The notes beneath the pieces were generated by a model. That model saw only the letters and a list, made by a program, of their open reading frames with translations. It was not told the DNA's origin and searched no databases. From Nitrospirota bacterium (GTDB lineage Bacteria > Nitrospirota > UBA9217), in contig CAWIYV010000014.1 of assembly GCA_963840455.1 (NCBI GenBank), positions 64,001 to 128,000 of the forward strand: a stretch of 64,000 nucleotides of DNA, written 5' to 3'. Positions 56,460 through 61,385 of the stretch are shown piece after piece. A program made the position numbers and the translations under genes. Numbering within the stretch: position 1 is the first letter of the stretch; each line of letters starts with the position of its first letter.

Positions 56460-57929
56460 TCAGACCTTCAGCAGTTCCGGATTCGTATGGGGGATGAAGA
56501 CGGCTCCCATGAACTCCTTCATGAACTCGGGGTCGTCATGCATGTGTTTGTACGTGATCTTGTCCACGAGCAGGTCCGCGGTACCGGCGATTCCCGCATC
56601 CCGGAGCAGCATGCGGCAGCCTTCGAGAGATGTGTTGCCCATGGGCTTCACGATCCCGGCCTGCCAGCCCGGCACCATACCGATGCCCGCGGCCTTCTTC
56701 ACGTCGATGCCCGTGCCGAGCGCTCCGGACACGAAGACTCTCTTGATGTCTCTGAACGCGACGCCCACGGAGCGGGTCAGGACGAGCAGCAGTGTGAACA
56801 TAGCGGCCTTGGACCGCATGAAGTTCTGGATCTCGCCCTGAGTGATGAAGAGCGCCTCCGCGCAGTCGCAGTTGACGGAAAAGGCCTTCTCGCCGTCGAT
56901 CTCGATGATGTGTCGTTTGCCGGTGAGCGCGCCGGTCTGGTCGATGATGCCGGCAGTGTACAGTTCGTACAGCAGGCTGACCATGCCGGAGCCGCAGATG
57001 CCTTCGGGCCTTCCCTGGTCGAAGGTCTTGCAGGAGACGCAGTCGCCGCTGATCTCAATGTCGTAAACGATGCCCTTTTTCGCCCGCTTCCCGATGGCTG
57101 AGATTCCCTCTTCAAGCGCCGGCCCTGCGGCACCCGCCCCCACGATCATCCACTCCCGGTTCCCGATCACGACCTCGGCGTTCGTGCCCACGTCCACCAG
57201 GATGGACGGCCTGTCAGAGGTATGCATCCCCGTCGCGATGATGCCGGCGGTGATGTCTCCGCCCACATAGCTGCCGGCGTTCGGGAACACGTACGCCAGG
57301 GCCTCCGGGTTGAGGTCGAGGCCGAGCTCCGCGGCGCTGAAGAATCCCGGCGTCCGGACCACCGGGACCCAGGGGGCTACAGGGATGGTGCTGATATCGA
57401 GCCCCAGCAGGAAGTGGGTCATTACTGTGTTCCCCGCCGCGGCCAGGCCGTGGAGGTCCCGGCCATTGACGCCGGCCTCGCGGCAGAGCGATGCGATAAG
57501 CGTGTTGATGCCGTTCCTGAGGACCCGGTAGATATCCTCGCCGTTGCCGGTCATGGCATGATGCATGCGGGTAAGGATGTCGCTCCCGTACTCGACCTGG
57601 GGGTTTTCGAGAGATCGGGTCACGATGTCCTTCTGCCCGATATTGTCATAGAGCACGGCAACGAGGTTCGTGGTGCCGAGGTCCAGGGCGACGGAGTAGG
57701 AGCGCCGCCGGTCGATGTCGATGAGCCGGTATGTATCGCCTGCCCTGCCGATGATGCATGACAGCTCGCGCTTCCTATTGATGATCGCAGCCGTTGAGCG
57801 GAGGAGCGACAGGGGAATGTGGAGCGGCCCCAGGCCGAGGGTGTCCCGGAGCCGCTGGTCGTGGGCCCGCCGGTCGTCGTCAGAGGGCAACGGGAGCGTT
57901 ATGGTCTTTTGAAAGATGAGCGGTTCCAT
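56460..57929 (-). CDS. ASKHA/DUF4445 (RACo-like) ATP-dependent reductive activator
   Basis: DLGTT, NPQ..YG.DI..R, AGNT.M.H, YVGGD, D.GTN.E, AGPALE, GICGSG and GN.SL.G. Confidence 0.9.
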   Translation of the reverse strand: MEPLIFQKTITLPLPSDDDRRAHDQRLRDTLGLGPLHIPLSLLRSTAAIINRKRELSCIIGRAGDTYRLIDIDRRRSYSVALDLGTTNLVAVLYDNIGQKDIVTRSLENPQVEYGSDILTRMHHAMTGNGEDIYRVLRNGINTLIASLCREAGVNGRDLHGLAAAGNTVMTHFLLGLDISTIPVAPWVPVVRTPGFFSAAELGLDLNPEALAYVFPNAGSYVGGDITAGIIATGMHTSDRPSILVDVGTNAEVVIGNREWMIVGAGAAGPALEEGISAIGKRAKKGIVYDIEISGDCVSCKTFDQGRPEGICGSGMVSLLYELYTAGIIDQTGALTGKRHIIEIDGEKAFSVNCDCAEALFITQGEIQNFMRSKAAMFTLLLVLTRSVGVAFRDIKRVFVSGALGTGIDVKKAAGIGMVPGWQAGIVKPMGNTSLEGCRMLLRDAGIAGTADLLVDKITYKHMHDDPEFMKEFMGAVFIPHTNPELLKV

Positions 57930-58041
57930 GGGGAATGAACTGCAGAGCGTGTGGAGAACAATACCATAGAACATGGGGGAAAGACAAGATAGGAGTCAGG
58001 AGAACACTTACAGCGGATCTCGTCTGAATGCTGGATTCTGG

Positions 58042-59637
58042 CTACTGGCTACTGGCTTCTGAGATAAAGCAGAAGGGGTCCTTGTCCTCGAAGATGTTCA
58101 ACCCACTGCTCAGAGTGCTGGCGAGGCATCCGCCGCAGGCAGGCCGGACCTCGCAGTCGCGGCAGTCCGACGGGCCTAGCCGGTATCGGCGCGCCTCCTC
58201 GCAGTCGTAGATCGTAGCAAGGCTTTGACAGTGGAGATTGCCGATGGGAGAGGGGAGCTTCCGGCAGGCATGGACCTCGCCGTCGGCCAGAAGGGAGACG
58301 AAGTTGAACGCTGCGCCGCATCCGTAGCCCGCGCATCCGCCGAAGAGGTCGACGCCCTTCTCGCGCCGCAGGATGTTGATGAGGTTGTCCTTGATGCCCA
58401 TGACCGGGTTCGTCTCTGCTGCCGCGAGGTAGTCCTCAAGGAACTTCCGGTAGCGCGTCCGGTCAGGGAGCTTGAGGTTCGCGCCTTCACCGAAGAGCGC
58501 GAGGCGGTTGAAGTGGAACACGTCGGCCTTTCCCCGGAGCAGCTCGGCCAGCGGGATGACCTCGTCCATGTTGTCGCGCGTCAGCGTGAGCATCACCATG
58601 GAGTAGATGCCCAGTTCGCGCAGAACGTCCAGGAACGCCATGATGCGGTCGAAATGGCCTGCGCCGCGGATATTGTCGTTATGCTCGCGCAGGCCCTCGA
58701 GGCTCACTTGGAAAAAAACGGGCTGCTGAATCGCCATGATCTCCTCGATGCGGCCGCGGGGAGCGGGATTGCCCAGGATCGCGGTGACGAACCCGCGGTC
58801 CGCGGCTGCGCGGTAGATCTCGTTGAACTGCGGATGGAGCAGAGGATTGCCGCCGGTGAAGGAGACCGCGCCCCGGACCCTCCGGTCCCTGCAAAAGGCG
58901 CGCAGGTCGTCGAGGACACGCACCGCCTGTTCGAGGGTGAGGGGCGAGCGGTCGCTCCGATCGTAGCAGTGCTTGCAGTGCAGGTCGCAGACCTGCGTGA
59001 TGTGCCACTGGAGCGTGAAAGAGTCGGAGGATAGGAACTCCTCGTCGCTAGATCTAACGGCCCTGAAGACCGACGGATCGCGCCGGAGCAGGGAGGGTGG
59101 TGCAAGGAGCAGGCCCTGCCGGACAGCACGATCGATCAACGCGTCCATGGCGCTTACAGTCACCTTGCCCGTGGCAGCCACTGATTCGGTAGAGATGCTT
59201 TCAGCGGCCATCTTGAGCGCAAGGAGATCGTCGTTCGAGGCCGGCTTGATACGGGCCTTCTTTTCCCGCTGGTCGAACCAGAGCAGGATGCGCTCCGGGC
59301 CTTCGACCGGTTCGACCGCCGGCCCCGGGACAGGCTCGAACAGGCCGCACAGTCCGCGCCAATGGACCTCGTGCACCGCCACCGTGGGATTCACGGCCAA
59401 CGCATCGACGGATGAGGGAATGGATGAGGCCCTGCCCCCGACGAGCCAGAGCTCATGCTCGATTCGCAGGAGGTCGTGCAGGTACCCAGGGAGGGCGACG
59501 CCTGCAGCGTGCAGTATGCTGAACAGGGCATCGGGGGCCGGGACCGCATCTGCCGATTTGACGTTCCTGTCCCAGAGGTCCGTGCCAACAACGGACCGGG
59601 AAACCAGATAGAATGCATTTTTCTTGTCGATGGTCAT
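58042..59637 (-). CDS. sbtM: Radical SAM/SPASM RiPP maturase, SbtM (thio/seleno-oxazole) type
   Basis: QWHITQ.CDLHCKHCY, FTGGNP and SPASM GC.G.GC..A...C...C..C.....CGGC...DPFC; long N-terminal extension; adjacent SbtA-like precursors. Confidence 0.88.
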   Translation of the reverse strand: MTIDKKNAFYLVSRSVVGTDLWDRNVKSADAVPAPDALFSILHAAGVALPGYLHDLLRIEHELWLVGGRASSIPSSVDALAVNPTVAVHEVHWRGLCGLFEPVPGPAVEPVEGPERILLWFDQREKKARIKPASNDDLLALKMAAESISTESVAATGKVTVSAMDALIDRAVRQGLLLAPPSLLRRDPSVFRAVRSSDEEFLSSDSFTLQWHITQVCDLHCKHCYDRSDRSPLTLEQAVRVLDDLRAFCRDRRVRGAVSFTGGNPLLHPQFNEIYRAAADRGFVTAILGNPAPRGRIEEIMAIQQPVFFQVSLEGLREHNDNIRGAGHFDRIMAFLDVLRELGIYSMVMLTLTRDNMDEVIPLAELLRGKADVFHFNRLALFGEGANLKLPDRTRYRKFLEDYLAAAETNPVMGIKDNLINILRREKGVDLFGGCAGYGCGAAFNFVSLLADGEVHACRKLPSPIGNLHCQSLATIYDCEEARRYRLGPSDCRDCEVRPACGGCLASTLSSGLNIFEDKDPFCFISEASSQ

Positions 59638-59759
59638 GGCAGGATGAGCCCGAAAAAATTATATCCCGTGCATGGAGCAAAGTCCATACCCGGGATAAAA
59701 AAGGATGCTGATAGTTGGGGCCATGGCCCCGCGCAGGTGGTCCGGTACTTCGTCTTTTT

Positions 59760-59776
59760 CTCGTGCGACCGCACGA
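59760..59776 (-). promoter_or_regulatory. SECIS-like hairpin of precursor 1
   Basis: UCGUGC-GGUC-GCACGA starts 15 nt after the last UGA, immediately after the UAA stop. Confidence 0.75.
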
Positions 59777-60004
59777 TTATTTGGAACCGCTTCAGCTGCT
59801 CTTCGGCGTTTCCTTCTTAGTGCCGCTTCAACTACTTTTTGCCGGCGCCGTCTTCGTCGGTTCCGACTTCAGCGCGCTACCGGTGGGGGCGGACTTGAGC
59901 GTACCCTCCGCTTTCGGGCTTTCCGCAGCAATGAGGCTGGTGCCGGTCAGGAGCCCGGCAATGCCGAGCCCTGCTAAGTACTTTTTGAGATCCTTTGGGT
60001 CCAT
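59777..60004 (-). CDS. sbtA: SbtA-family RiPP precursor 1, 75 aa, two Sec (codons 59 and 71)
   Basis: MDPKDLKKYLAGLGIAGLLTGTSLIAAESPKAEGTLKSAPTGSALKSEPTKTAPAKSS-U-SGTKKETPKSS-U-SGSK*; RBS AAGGAGGTG. Confidence 0.88.
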
Positions 60005-60326
60005 TGGTCATTCACCTCCTTTCCTGGTTCAAGTCTGCATTCTATTCCATTGGTAAATTCGATAGAAAAGGAAAATTACTATCGGCAATACTAACAGTGT
60101 ACCTGTCCGCTGTCAAGGAGATGTGGTGGATGCCGGGATGGCGGAGGCGGTATATGGTATTGATGGGAGCGGCCATTGATGAGGCAATATTGCCGGCTGC
60201 GGTTTGAAAAAAGATAGCCCGGACAGGAACTGCGTCCCTGGCTGGGCGGCATGGTGATATTCTTTTCCGGGCCGTTGTCCGGTCCGTTGCGCATCGTTGT
60301 GCGCCGGTGTAGCCATGTTCCGTGGG

Positions 60327-60344
60327 ATAGTGCGACCGCACTAT
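60327..60344 (-). promoter_or_regulatory. SECIS-like hairpin of precursor 2
   Basis: AUAGUGC-GGUC-GCACUAU at the same spacing, with a compensatory pair change relative to the precursor-1 hairpin. Confidence 0.75.
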
Positions 60345-60556
60345 TACTTGGTGCCGCTTCAGCTGCTCTTGGCAGGGATCTGCGAAGCGTCGCTTTTAGC
60401 GCCACTTCAGCTGCTCTTTGCCGGAGCCTGCTGGGCGTCACCCTTCTTGCCGCCTCAGCCGGTAGAGGCGCAGCCGCCAGCCATCAAGCTGGTGCCCGCC
60501 AGAAGCCCGGCGATGCCGATCCCTGCCAGGAACTTCTTGAGTTCCTGTGCGTCCAT
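60344..60556 (-). CDS. sbtA: SbtA-family RiPP precursor 2, 70 aa, three Sec (codons 34, 50 and 66)
   Basis: MDAQELKKFLAGIGIAGLLAGTSLMAGGCASTG-U-GGKKGDAQQAPAKSS-U-SGAKSDASQIPAKSS-U-SGTK*; RBS AAGGAGGTG. Confidence 0.88.
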
Positions 60557-60749
60557 GGTACACCTCCTTTTCCTATAGGGTATGTGCTCCCGAGGATCAC
60601 AATAGGTACCAGCGATCGAAAGTGCATGGCCCAATATAAAAAATAATATCAGTGACACAGGCGTCCTGTCAAGCGCCGACGCCCGATGTTCAGGAGGCCG
60701 CAGTCCTTTCTCTCTACAAAACCAACGGGCAAAGAGTTATAATAACTTC

Positions 60750-61385
60750 ATGAAAAAGTTTATTATCACGTTGATCGCAATGCTGGTCCTGGGAGGGGTG
60801 AATATGGCGCAGGCGGGCGAAGCCGGGAAGGGGTCAGCCGTCACTCCGAAGAATCTGGAGAAGGCAACTTTCGCGGGCGGCTGCTTCTGGTGCATGGAGC
60901 CACCCTTCGAGAAGCTCAAAGGGGTTGATGCCGTCATATCGGGGTACACCGGCGGCAGGACCGAGAACCCGACGTATGAAGAAGTCTCTTCAGGCAGGAC
61001 CGGGCATGCCGAGGCTGTGGAAGTGCATTATGACCCCACTCAGATAACCTACGCCGAACTCCTGGACGTGTTCTGGCACAATATCGACCCGACGACGCGC
61101 GACCGGCAGTTCGTGGACACGGGAAGCCAATACCGGACGGTTATCTTCTATCACAACGAAGAGCAGAAGCGGCTGGCCGAGGAATCGAAGAAGAAATATG
61201 ATGCATCCGGGCGGTTCGGAAAGCCCATTGTGACCGAGATCGTGCCGGTGGGGAAGTTCTACCCGGCAGAGGAATATCACCAGGACTACTACAAAAAGAG
61301 TGCGGTGCGCTACAAGTTCTACCGCTTCAATTCGGGACGTGACCAGTATCTGGAGAAGATCTGGGGCAAGGAGAAGGACCAATAG
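60750..61385 (+). CDS. msrA: Peptide-methionine (S)-S-oxide reductase, exported
   Basis: ATFAGGCFWCME, SGYTGG...NPTYE.V....TGH.E and FYPAEEYHQDYY; signal peptide. Confidence 0.95.
   Translation: MKKFIITLIAMLVLGGVNMAQAGEAGKGSAVTPKNLEKATFAGGCFWCMEPPFEKLKGVDAVISGYTGGRTENPTYEEVSSGRTGHAEAVEVHYDPTQITYAELLDVFWHNIDPTTRDRQFVDTGSQYRTVIFYHNEEQKRLAEESKKKYDASGRFGKPIVTEIVPVGKFYPAEEYHQDYYKKSAVRYKFYRFNSGRDQYLEKIWGKEKDQ

Follow-up and report, generated by a model that had tools for sequence, protein, structure and literature searches.

Bacterial decoding of selenocysteine (Sec) is taught as strictly local, with a selenocysteine insertion sequence (SECIS) lying right after each UGA codon, and this rule limits the engineering of recombinant selenoproteins. 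We analyzed a 64,000-nucleotide (nt) stretch of DNA, hereafter the window, from a Nitrospirota bacterium (assembly GCA_963840455.1, contig CAWIYV010000014.1, positions 64,001 to 128,000), in which two short sbtA genes carry two and three in-frame UGAs and a single SECIS-type hairpin each. Both genes lie on the minus strand; coordinates are those of the window. Gene 1 (CDS 60004..59777) comprises 75 codons and a TAA, with in-frame UGAs at codons 59 and 71 (59830-59828 and 59794-59792) separated by 36 nt. Gene 2 (CDS 60556..60344) comprises 70 codons and a TAA, with UGAs at codons 34, 50 and 66 (60457-60455, 60409-60407 and 60361-60359), the first two lying 96 and 48 nt before the last. These distances agree with those in a preliminary description of the locus made from the DNA letters alone.

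The identity of the genes rests on family models, motif and neighborhood. Scored with the family hidden Markov model TIGR04081, the leaders of gene 1 and gene 2 reach 47.5 and 41.8 bits against a curated cut-off of 30.5, and they are the only SbtA matches above that cut-off in the 4.03-Mb genome. The next gene 3' of gene 1, on the same strand, is sbtM (58042..59637, minus), which provides the neighboring maturase that defines the family; it encodes a thio(seleno)oxazole radical SAM/SPASM maturase of 531 aa that scores 717.5 bits with TIGR04082 (curated cut-off 350). Its closest relatives, at 87% identity or less, are found on Nitrospirae/Nitrospirota metagenome-derived records. The C-terminal core motif S-[SG]-U-[SG]-G occurs twice in gene 1 and three times in gene 2, where the repeat takes the form K-S-S-U-S-G-x-K, and, as in SbtA generally, Sec or Cys occupies a Gly/Ser-rich C-terminal motif in which the two residues exchange among homologues. 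Genes 1 and 2 form a tandem pair of sbtA precursors within the SbtA/SbtM thio(seleno)oxazole peptide system.

The single hairpin of each gene lies at its 3' end. In gene 1 it spans 59761..59776 (minus), directly after the TAA, with a 6-bp stem and a GGUC loop at 59770-59767; in gene 2 it spans 60327..60344 (minus), its first base being the last base of the TAA and the remainder extending into the 3' untranslated region, with a 6-7-bp stem and a GGUC loop at 60337-60334. In both genes the hairpin starts 15 nt, and its loop 21 nt, after the last UGA, and a single C-G to A-U exchange distinguishes the two stems. The preliminary description had recorded a hairpin of this GUGC-GGUC-GCAC type at this distance with this exchange, and its coordinates and spacings proved correct. 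The consensus model of the bacterial SECIS, as given in the available part of a 2026 review (PMC13188914), calls for a loop of 3-9 nt on a stem of 4-16 bp, a G in the first two loop positions that is mostly followed by G or U, a distance of 16-37 nt from UGA to loop, and a folding energy of -7.5 kcal/mol or lower. Both 3' hairpins fall within all four criteria of this model, their energies of -7.9 (gene 1) and -7.6 kcal/mol (gene 2) passing the -7.5 threshold only just. The resemblance to the E. coli fdhF-type SECIS is close: a 4-nt loop beginning GG-U, a stem of 6-7 bp, a spacing of 21 nt and an energy no higher than -7.5 kcal/mol are shared. Placing a SECIS past the stop codon to serve a C-terminal UGA is practice in recombinant work.

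Several lines of evidence support this assignment. The 12-nt core of the hairpin occurs twice in the 4.03-Mb genome, both times in sbtA, while its reversed control does not occur. When homologs were gathered without regard to the hairpin, all 75 of the 75 distinct terminal-UGA contexts proved to have one of 5 bp or more, in most cases 18-22 nt past the UGA. Folding and covariation across sbtA homologs had been proposed as a check, and in an alignment of 50 terminal hairpins compensatory changes were found in five of the six consensus pairs, with the loop G invariant. A covariance model built from these 50 terminal hairpins and run on the 1.1-kb region with filters off recovered the gene 2 hairpin at 23.1 bits (E 2.6e-5) and the gene 1 hairpin at 20.3 bits (E 1.5e-4). 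The genome encodes one SelB and an ordinary tRNA-Sec, and no second selB was found in it. Six other genes contain one in-frame TGA each and encode two FdhA, three related molybdopterin oxidoreductases and SelD (C10:288503-290509, C9:237513-239510, C8:21854-22297, C8:29058-29501, C13:14877-15695 and C14:252661-253584). All six contain a strong hairpin with the loop beginning 18-23 nt past the UGA; in three of them the loop is GGUCU at 18 nt, so that the GGUC loop of sbtA fits what the SelB of this organism evidently reads. By these sequence features the 3' hairpin is an ordinary bacterial SECIS that would serve the last UGA. A role as an intrinsic terminator was considered and rejected: no run of U follows the hairpin on the coding strand, and the sole terminator-like call is on the opposite strand.

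The upstream UGAs present a different picture. Their distances to the GGUC loop are 57 nt (gene 1 UGA 1), 69 nt (gene 2 UGA 2) and 117 nt (gene 2 UGA 1), all outside the 16-37 nt of the published model, and it is here that the genes depart from the E. coli fdhF type, since for three of the five UGAs the loop is 57-117 nt away. Apart from the two terminal hairpins, the covariance model gave no coding-strand match above 7 bits in the 1.1-kb region, in agreement with the earlier statement that the upstream UGAs are without such a hairpin. The model was able to detect internal hairpins where they exist: in five genes of other clades, whose internal hairpins were absent from the training set, it found 4 of 4, 4 of 4, 4 of 4, 3 of 3 and 3 of 3 per-UGA hairpins at 13-23 bits. 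A simple hairpin scan returned none for gene 1 UGA 1 and only 4-bp stems in gene 2.

We also applied a permissive version of the published model, in which one internal loop is allowed. Under it, neither gene 1 UGA 1 (59828..59830) nor gene 2 UGA 2 (60407..60409) has a SECIS. For gene 2 UGA 1 (60455..60457) it yields one marginal candidate at 60408..60433 (minus), composed of two 4-bp stems with a 7-nt loop 31 nt after the UGA and a folding energy of -9.4 kcal/mol; 20% of dinucleotide shuffles of the site also comply. Three of the five UGAs are without a canonical SECIS of their own, and one of these three has a marginal candidate. Had each UGA possessed a canonical SECIS, the proposal of one hairpin for several UGAs would have fallen; the upstream UGAs instead fail the published model, the single marginal candidate being the nearest approach to it.

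What the preliminary description said of the arrangement as a whole can be divided accordingly into two parts. One canonical SECIS per gene for two to three UGAs stands. The suggestion that short stems with GAC triloops act as minimal SECIS elements does not: the 4-bp GAC-triloop stems after the first two UGAs of gene 2 are present, the first with an energy of -3.2 kcal/mol, and we rejected them as candidates after 102 of 500 column shuffles matched their pairing and the outer pair proved to be missing in 38 of 57 units.

To place the window among its relatives, 401 genomes of the phylum were scanned, of which 47 encode SbtA, giving 67 gene copies and 156 in-frame UGAs; a second search, anchored on SbtM, gave 72 loci. 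Neither was selected on the hairpin, and all 64 genomes of the window's family were sampled. A UGA was counted as having a hairpin if one of -5 kcal/mol or lower started 8-27 nt downstream. By this criterion hairpins follow 1 of 27 upstream UGAs in the window's subclade of 12 genomes. In the window's family the figures are 17 of 53 upstream UGAs and 26 of 26 terminal UGAs, and in the other families of the phylum 46 of 49 and 26 of 28. The strict published model is satisfied by 30 of 79 UGAs in the family, by 57 of 77 in the rest of the phylum and by 80 of 96 among the SbtM-anchored loci. Applied to the 12 loci of the window's clade, the covariance model picked out the terminal hairpin of each of the 17 genes and found no internal hairpin.

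One SECIS for several UGAs is thus a clade-wide pattern, observed in 12 related Nitrospirota genomes. The sbtA genes of other clades belong to the same family and have the same repeated motif and terminal hairpin, but they possess a hairpin of their own at 46 of 49 upstream UGAs as against 1 of 27 in the window's clade. Where UGAs stand in tandem outside the window's clade, 3-5 codons apart, they have one hairpin in common. Searching metagenome contigs with the hairpin as the pattern contributed 45 further stretches, which were used only for questions on the upstream parts of the genes; with these, 26 distinct genes of the gene 1 type and 45 of the gene 2 type were available, the metagenome part of both sets being selected by the hairpin.

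Several observations bear on whether the upstream UGAs are translated. Both TGAs are invariant in 26 of 26 sequences of the gene 1 type, with neighboring third codon positions varying. In 45 of 45 genes of the gene 2 type, the spacing between first UGA and hairpin is divisible by 3, and it takes nine different lengths. The motif S-[SG]-U-[SG]-G-x-K recurs at each UGA, and in some relatives, one all-Cys paralogue among them, Cys codons stand at homologous UGA positions. The downstream repeats behave in evolution like coding sequence, and the upstream UGAs are, as their alignment indicates, clearly sense codons at Sec/Cys positions of a repeated motif. They may be decoded as Sec. Other residues also occur at these positions: one sublineage of the gene 2 type has GAA (Glu), two nucleotide changes away, in place of the last UGA, and GGA, UUA or UGU stands at Sec positions of other gene-2-type relatives (the set comprising L015:970, L154, L160, L168, L173, L179, L188 and L190). 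The Sec positions of the repeats are hence exchangeable beyond Cys.

These observations also weigh on the possibility that ribosomes mostly terminate at the upstream UGAs, so that products of graded length are set by the selenium supply and the full-length, multi-Sec peptide is minor or conditional. We regard this as rather improbable. In its favor, the upstream UGAs have no canonical SECIS close enough to serve them; it agrees with the low UGA read-through that the available part of a review gives for E. coli when no properly placed SECIS is present, and it is compatible with any other mechanism working at low efficiency. However, termination at gene 2 UGA 1 would leave a 33-residue leader with no core motif, and the conservation of repeats, frame and UGAs across the clade points to regular translation. 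The clade has moreover lost internal hairpins that its sister clades keep, which is hard to square with a need for the upstream residues unless there is another route to them.

One such route would be a second tRNA. Outside the window the genome contains a second tRNA-Sec-like gene (G000:C9:389439-389529, also L195:1040-1130) that matches RF01852 with 52.9 bits (gathering score 47). In its product the anticodon would be UCA, the acceptor, T and D stems would measure 8, 4 and 6 bp, and the discriminator would be U73. The structural features of selC* tRNAs, namely a tRNA-Sec-like fold, U73 and a GCA or UCA anticodon, are all present, and the tRNA fits the selC* tRNA(Cys) class, its charging with Cys and its activity at UGA being putative. 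According to the available part of the original report (PMC5389517), selC* tRNA(Cys) occurs in Nitrospirae and other anaerobes and is a proposed opal suppressor. The tRNA-Sec-like fold, the UCA anticodon, U73 and the 8/4 branch are common to the reported tRNAs and to the one in this genome; unlike the former, the latter does not lie beside selB* or cysS* and does not co-occur with SECIS-less sbtA UGAs.

With two RF01852 matches in the genome, the second of them bearing selC* tRNA(Cys) features, the SECIS-less upstream UGAs could be read as Cys by this tRNA(UCA), with Sec inserted only at the last UGA; SbtM modifies Cys and Sec peptides alike in the part of PMC9204691 that was available, which makes Cys there conceivable. 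The distribution of the tRNA argues otherwise. Five of the 12 window-clade genomes (G111, G005, G024, G131 and G182, which are 85-100% complete) were found in a dedicated search to have one tRNA-Sec-like gene only, and they carry the same SECIS-less UGAs. Conversely, the second tRNA is present in at least 14 family genomes that have no sbtA, similar genes being found in about 25 of the 64 family genomes, with or without sbtA. Delivery by SelB or SelB* has been suggested (PMC5389517, available part), which would again require a SECIS, and no second selB accompanies the tRNA here. Finally, UGY is one mutation away, yet UGA has been kept. The selC*-type tRNA cannot be the general answer and is not required, and we consider decoding of the upstream UGAs as Cys by this route quite unlikely, the least probable of the explanations weighed.

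The RNA around the upstream UGAs is itself structured, in ways that the preliminary description had missed, as it had the selC*-type tRNA(UCA): it recorded neither the covarying hairpins of the repeat units nor a conserved long-range stem. In gene 2, UGA 1 lies in the lower stem of a unit hairpin at 60430..60459 (minus; -12.1 kcal/mol, z -1.9, 7 of 200 shuffles as good), with the A of the UGA bulged, and UGA 2 lies in the lower stem of another at 60382..60411 (minus; -12.8 kcal/mol, z -2.4, 3 of 200 shuffles as good), which differs from most homologous units by two compensatory pairs in the upper stem. In 57 distinct units, 80.1% of the cells of this hairpin of about 30 nt, typical of gene 2, are paired, as compared with 21-41% when the partner strand is slid. 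The covariation score is 0.198 versus 0.144 in shuffles, and none of 500 shuffles reaches 0.198. Most of the compensatory change falls in two pairs (AU 20, GC 17 and GU 10 in one; AU 38, GU 7, GC 6 and UG 2 in the other); this covariation may partly reflect descent of the units as paralogues, first and second units differing systematically.

The unit hairpins are candidates for a local, non-canonical recoding element at each upstream UGA, acting independently of the 3' hairpin as a second class of SECIS or as a read-through stimulator; the other candidate is the structure at 60433-60408 for gene 2 UGA 1. Conservation and covariation of the unit hairpins, together with their stability, speak for such elements, as does a sister subclade in which the middle UGAs are followed by a different hairpin, 4-6 nt on and with an A-rich loop (L008, L053 and L013). 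The 60433-60408 candidate complies with the permissive model and recurs in 11 distinct genes of the gene 2 type, and some bacterial SECIS depart from the consensus model according to the available part of the 2026 review (PMC13188914). Yet the apical loop of the UGA 1 unit hairpin starts 9 nt after the UGA and those of unit hairpins overall 7-9 nt after it, and the loops lack the G-[G/U] of the model, so that by the model these hairpins are not SECIS. Judging from the spacing of about 11 nt in E. coli, as the available part of the literature gives it, a unit hairpin would be mostly unwound with its UGA in the ribosomal A site. Gene 1 UGA 1 has no comparable local hairpin. Across the whole clade only 22 of 105 upstream UGAs comply with the permissive model versus 12% of shuffles, and 4 of the 22 belong to a distinct group with canonical hairpins; among terminal UGAs, compliance is 56 of 64 versus 5.5% of shuffles. 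The same SelB, furthermore, must read the GGUCU-loop SECIS in FdhA. Local elements independent of the 3' hairpin are therefore an unlikely explanation, though the one we would place second.

Helices of longer range are predicted in both genes. In gene 2 a long-range stem occupies 60350..60442 (minus), its arms lying near 60442-60414 and 60374-60350. The stem has unit 2 inside it and is separated by 12 nt from UGA 1 on its 5' side and by 5 nt from the SECIS on its 3' side. It comprises 22 pairs, almost none of which vary, in the RNAalifold consensus of 14 three-unit genes, and appears also in the minimum-energy fold of the window's own sequence (z -2.06 and -1.76, dinucleotide shuffles). In gene 1, RNAalifold applied to the 26 genes of its type predicts a stem, H1, at 59783..59813 (minus), with UGA 2 in the loop; 14 nt lie between UGA 1 and the stem, and 6 nt between the stem and the SECIS. 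Of the cells of H1, 96.1% are paired, as compared with 18-52% when slid. The corresponding energies of the gene 1 fold give z values of -0.12 and -1.21 (dinucleotide shuffles). Helices around the upstream UGAs are conserved.

These findings lead us to a model in which one distal SECIS serves all UGAs of a gene. Each sbtA gene would have its own promoter and yield a short mRNA with exactly one SelB-type SECIS. The GGUC hairpin would serve the last UGA at the ordinary 21-nt loop spacing, and SelB carrying Sec-tRNA(Sec), recruited by this single distal hairpin, would also decode the upstream UGAs. The intervening repeats would be folded away, by H1 in gene 1 and, in gene 2, by the 22-bp long-range stem together with the unit hairpins, so that the path from an upstream UGA to the SECIS would shrink from a linear 51-111 nt to about 12-14 nt, one helix and a further 5-6 nt. 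The distal hairpin would be responsible for the upstream UGAs as well, and the helices would serve as spacers. We put this forward tentatively, as the likeliest of the mechanisms considered while still short of an even chance. Behind it we rank the local elements, then graded termination, and last the reading as Cys by a selC*-type tRNA.

A number of observations weigh against this mechanism. SelB action at 57-117 nt would have no precedent in bacteria; in E. coli, as a review states in its available part, a working hairpin must be 11 nt from the UGA. H1 and the long-range stem hardly vary, and with covariation near absent, covariation cannot confirm them: in H1 one of seven pairs covaries, and in the 43-pair consensus of gene 2 two pairs do, neither of them in the 22-bp long-range stem. 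The compensatory changes of the unit hairpins back local hairpins and not the long-range stem. When a ribosome is placed at gene 2 UGA 2, the single-sequence fold is without the relay pairing, and gene 2 UGA 1 has a marginal candidate of its own. Any residue assigned to these UGAs is a prediction from sequence. Nor does the shortened path discriminate. It was measured in minimum-energy folds with the 10 nt after the UGA kept unpaired, and came to 10-12 units for most of the 105 upstream UGAs irrespective of linear distance, which spans 45-126 nt; with the intervening sequence shuffled, the median path was 15 versus 11 observed, and 36% of shuffles were as good. We accordingly do not count it as support for the spacer idea. 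The shuffles of this test preserved mononucleotide content only, so that the energy z of -3.6 obtained with them is inflated.

Retention of the 3' hairpin in genes whose terminal UGA has become GAA or GGA was likewise considered as support and dropped, the metagenome loci having been chosen by the hairpin. A further finding makes such retention uninformative about service to upstream UGAs, and so takes another support from the distal-SECIS mechanism: an all-Cys paralogue at L012:1500-1790 (+) contains no UGA and keeps both internal and 3' SECIS-type hairpins. In L008, L053 and L037 the only UGA lies 17-20 codons before the stop, and the 3' hairpin is kept. Hairpins of the SECIS type thus either persist once their UGAs are gone or serve a second purpose, for instance in stabilizing the transcript.

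Many UGAs and multiple RNA structures characterize the eukaryotic SELENOP, and the Sec redefinition elements of eukaryotes adjoin the UGA. If the distal-SECIS mechanism holds, SELENOP and the archaeal distal SECIS would be its nearest functional analogues, with one 3' element, several UGAs and local helices. The core of the eukaryotic and archaeal SECIS, a kink-turn GA quartet or a GAA_A bulge in the available part of the 2026 review (PMC13188914), is absent here, and the element is a plain 6-7-bp tetraloop hairpin. The likeness to SELENOP would thus be a resemblance of function, not of membership. Bacterial SelB binds the SECIS directly, and we know of no SBP2-like adaptor in bacteria. With these differences in mind, a bacterial SELENOP-like arrangement, in which a single SelB-type SECIS in the 3' untranslated region acts 57-117 nt upstream, helices loop out the repeats, and the clade has given up its per-UGA hairpins, is a possible description of the locus that we hold with some doubt.

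The family and the SECIS are both known. A 2026 review gives SbtA the motif SGUG and 2 Sec, and the parts of the SbtA literature available describe Sec in an S/G-U-S/G-G motif, "at least two SeCys" and a single SECIS that follows the stop-like codon. The precursors and maturase in the window score above the cut-offs of the SbtA/SbtM ("selenobacteriocin") families TIGR04081 and TIGR04082 and share this Sec motif; the number of SECIS per UGA is not given in those parts of the descriptions, whereas here two and three UGAs go with one SECIS each. No description of the number or placement of SECIS in sbtA was found in the literature searched, which stopped short of the full text of the primary family papers (Haft and Basu 2011; Lewis et al. 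2021). Within the reach of these searches, the conserved combination of one SECIS with several UGAs, at distances of 57-117 nt, is undescribed. With 2-4 conserved, translated UGAs and one SECIS-type hairpin per gene of 70-80 codons, set against sister clades that have one hairpin per UGA, the clade offers a comparative system for SelB action at a distance, for RNA folding in place of proximity, or for an alternative route, for example a selC*-type tRNA. Whichever holds, the outcome matters for the number of selenooxazoles versus thiooxazoles in the SbtA product and for automated selenoprotein annotation, in which filtering on a nearby SECIS would truncate these genes.

The layout of the locus is compatible with short transcripts of the kind the distal-SECIS mechanism supposes. 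Sigma-70-like promoter sites, identified by consensus match only, lie before gene 2 (60643..60672, minus; 11 of 12 matches, with TG) and before gene 1 (60088..60116, minus; 10 of 12 matches, with TG), and sbtM also has a sigma-70-like consensus match 5' of it. These promoter-like sites suggest separate short transcripts for each sbtA gene and for sbtM. Short contigs, 90-99% alike and drawn from three studies with four RNA libraries between them, span just the two sbtA genes with all UGAs and hairpins and without the flanks; they give a weak hint of sbtA expression, since contigs cannot prove transcription or transcript ends.

The SbtA "leaders" resemble export signals. That of gene 2 (60470-60556, minus) has a hydrophobic stretch and a terminal, lipobox-like A-G-G-C, and that of gene 1 (59920-60004, minus) a hydrophobic stretch and a terminal I-A-A-E. 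Just 3' of sbtM lies a homologue of AcsV/RACo-like corrinoid activases (56460-57974, minus; 343 bits, under the cut-off of 800), and an MsrA with an N-terminal hydrophobic stretch is encoded divergently upstream of the sbtA genes (60750-61385, plus). Both genes flank the cassette in 5 of the 72 SbtM-anchored loci, all of them closest relatives, and their presence is thus local synteny and not part of the system. Between sbtA gene 1 and sbtM, a perfect 14-nt GC-rich palindrome (59717-59730, minus) has a run of six U about 14 nt beyond it, and farther on an imperfect inverted repeat of about 34 nt (59664-59697, minus) overlaps the promoter-like site of sbtM. The palindrome and the inverted repeat could be attenuator and operator candidates ahead of sbtM.

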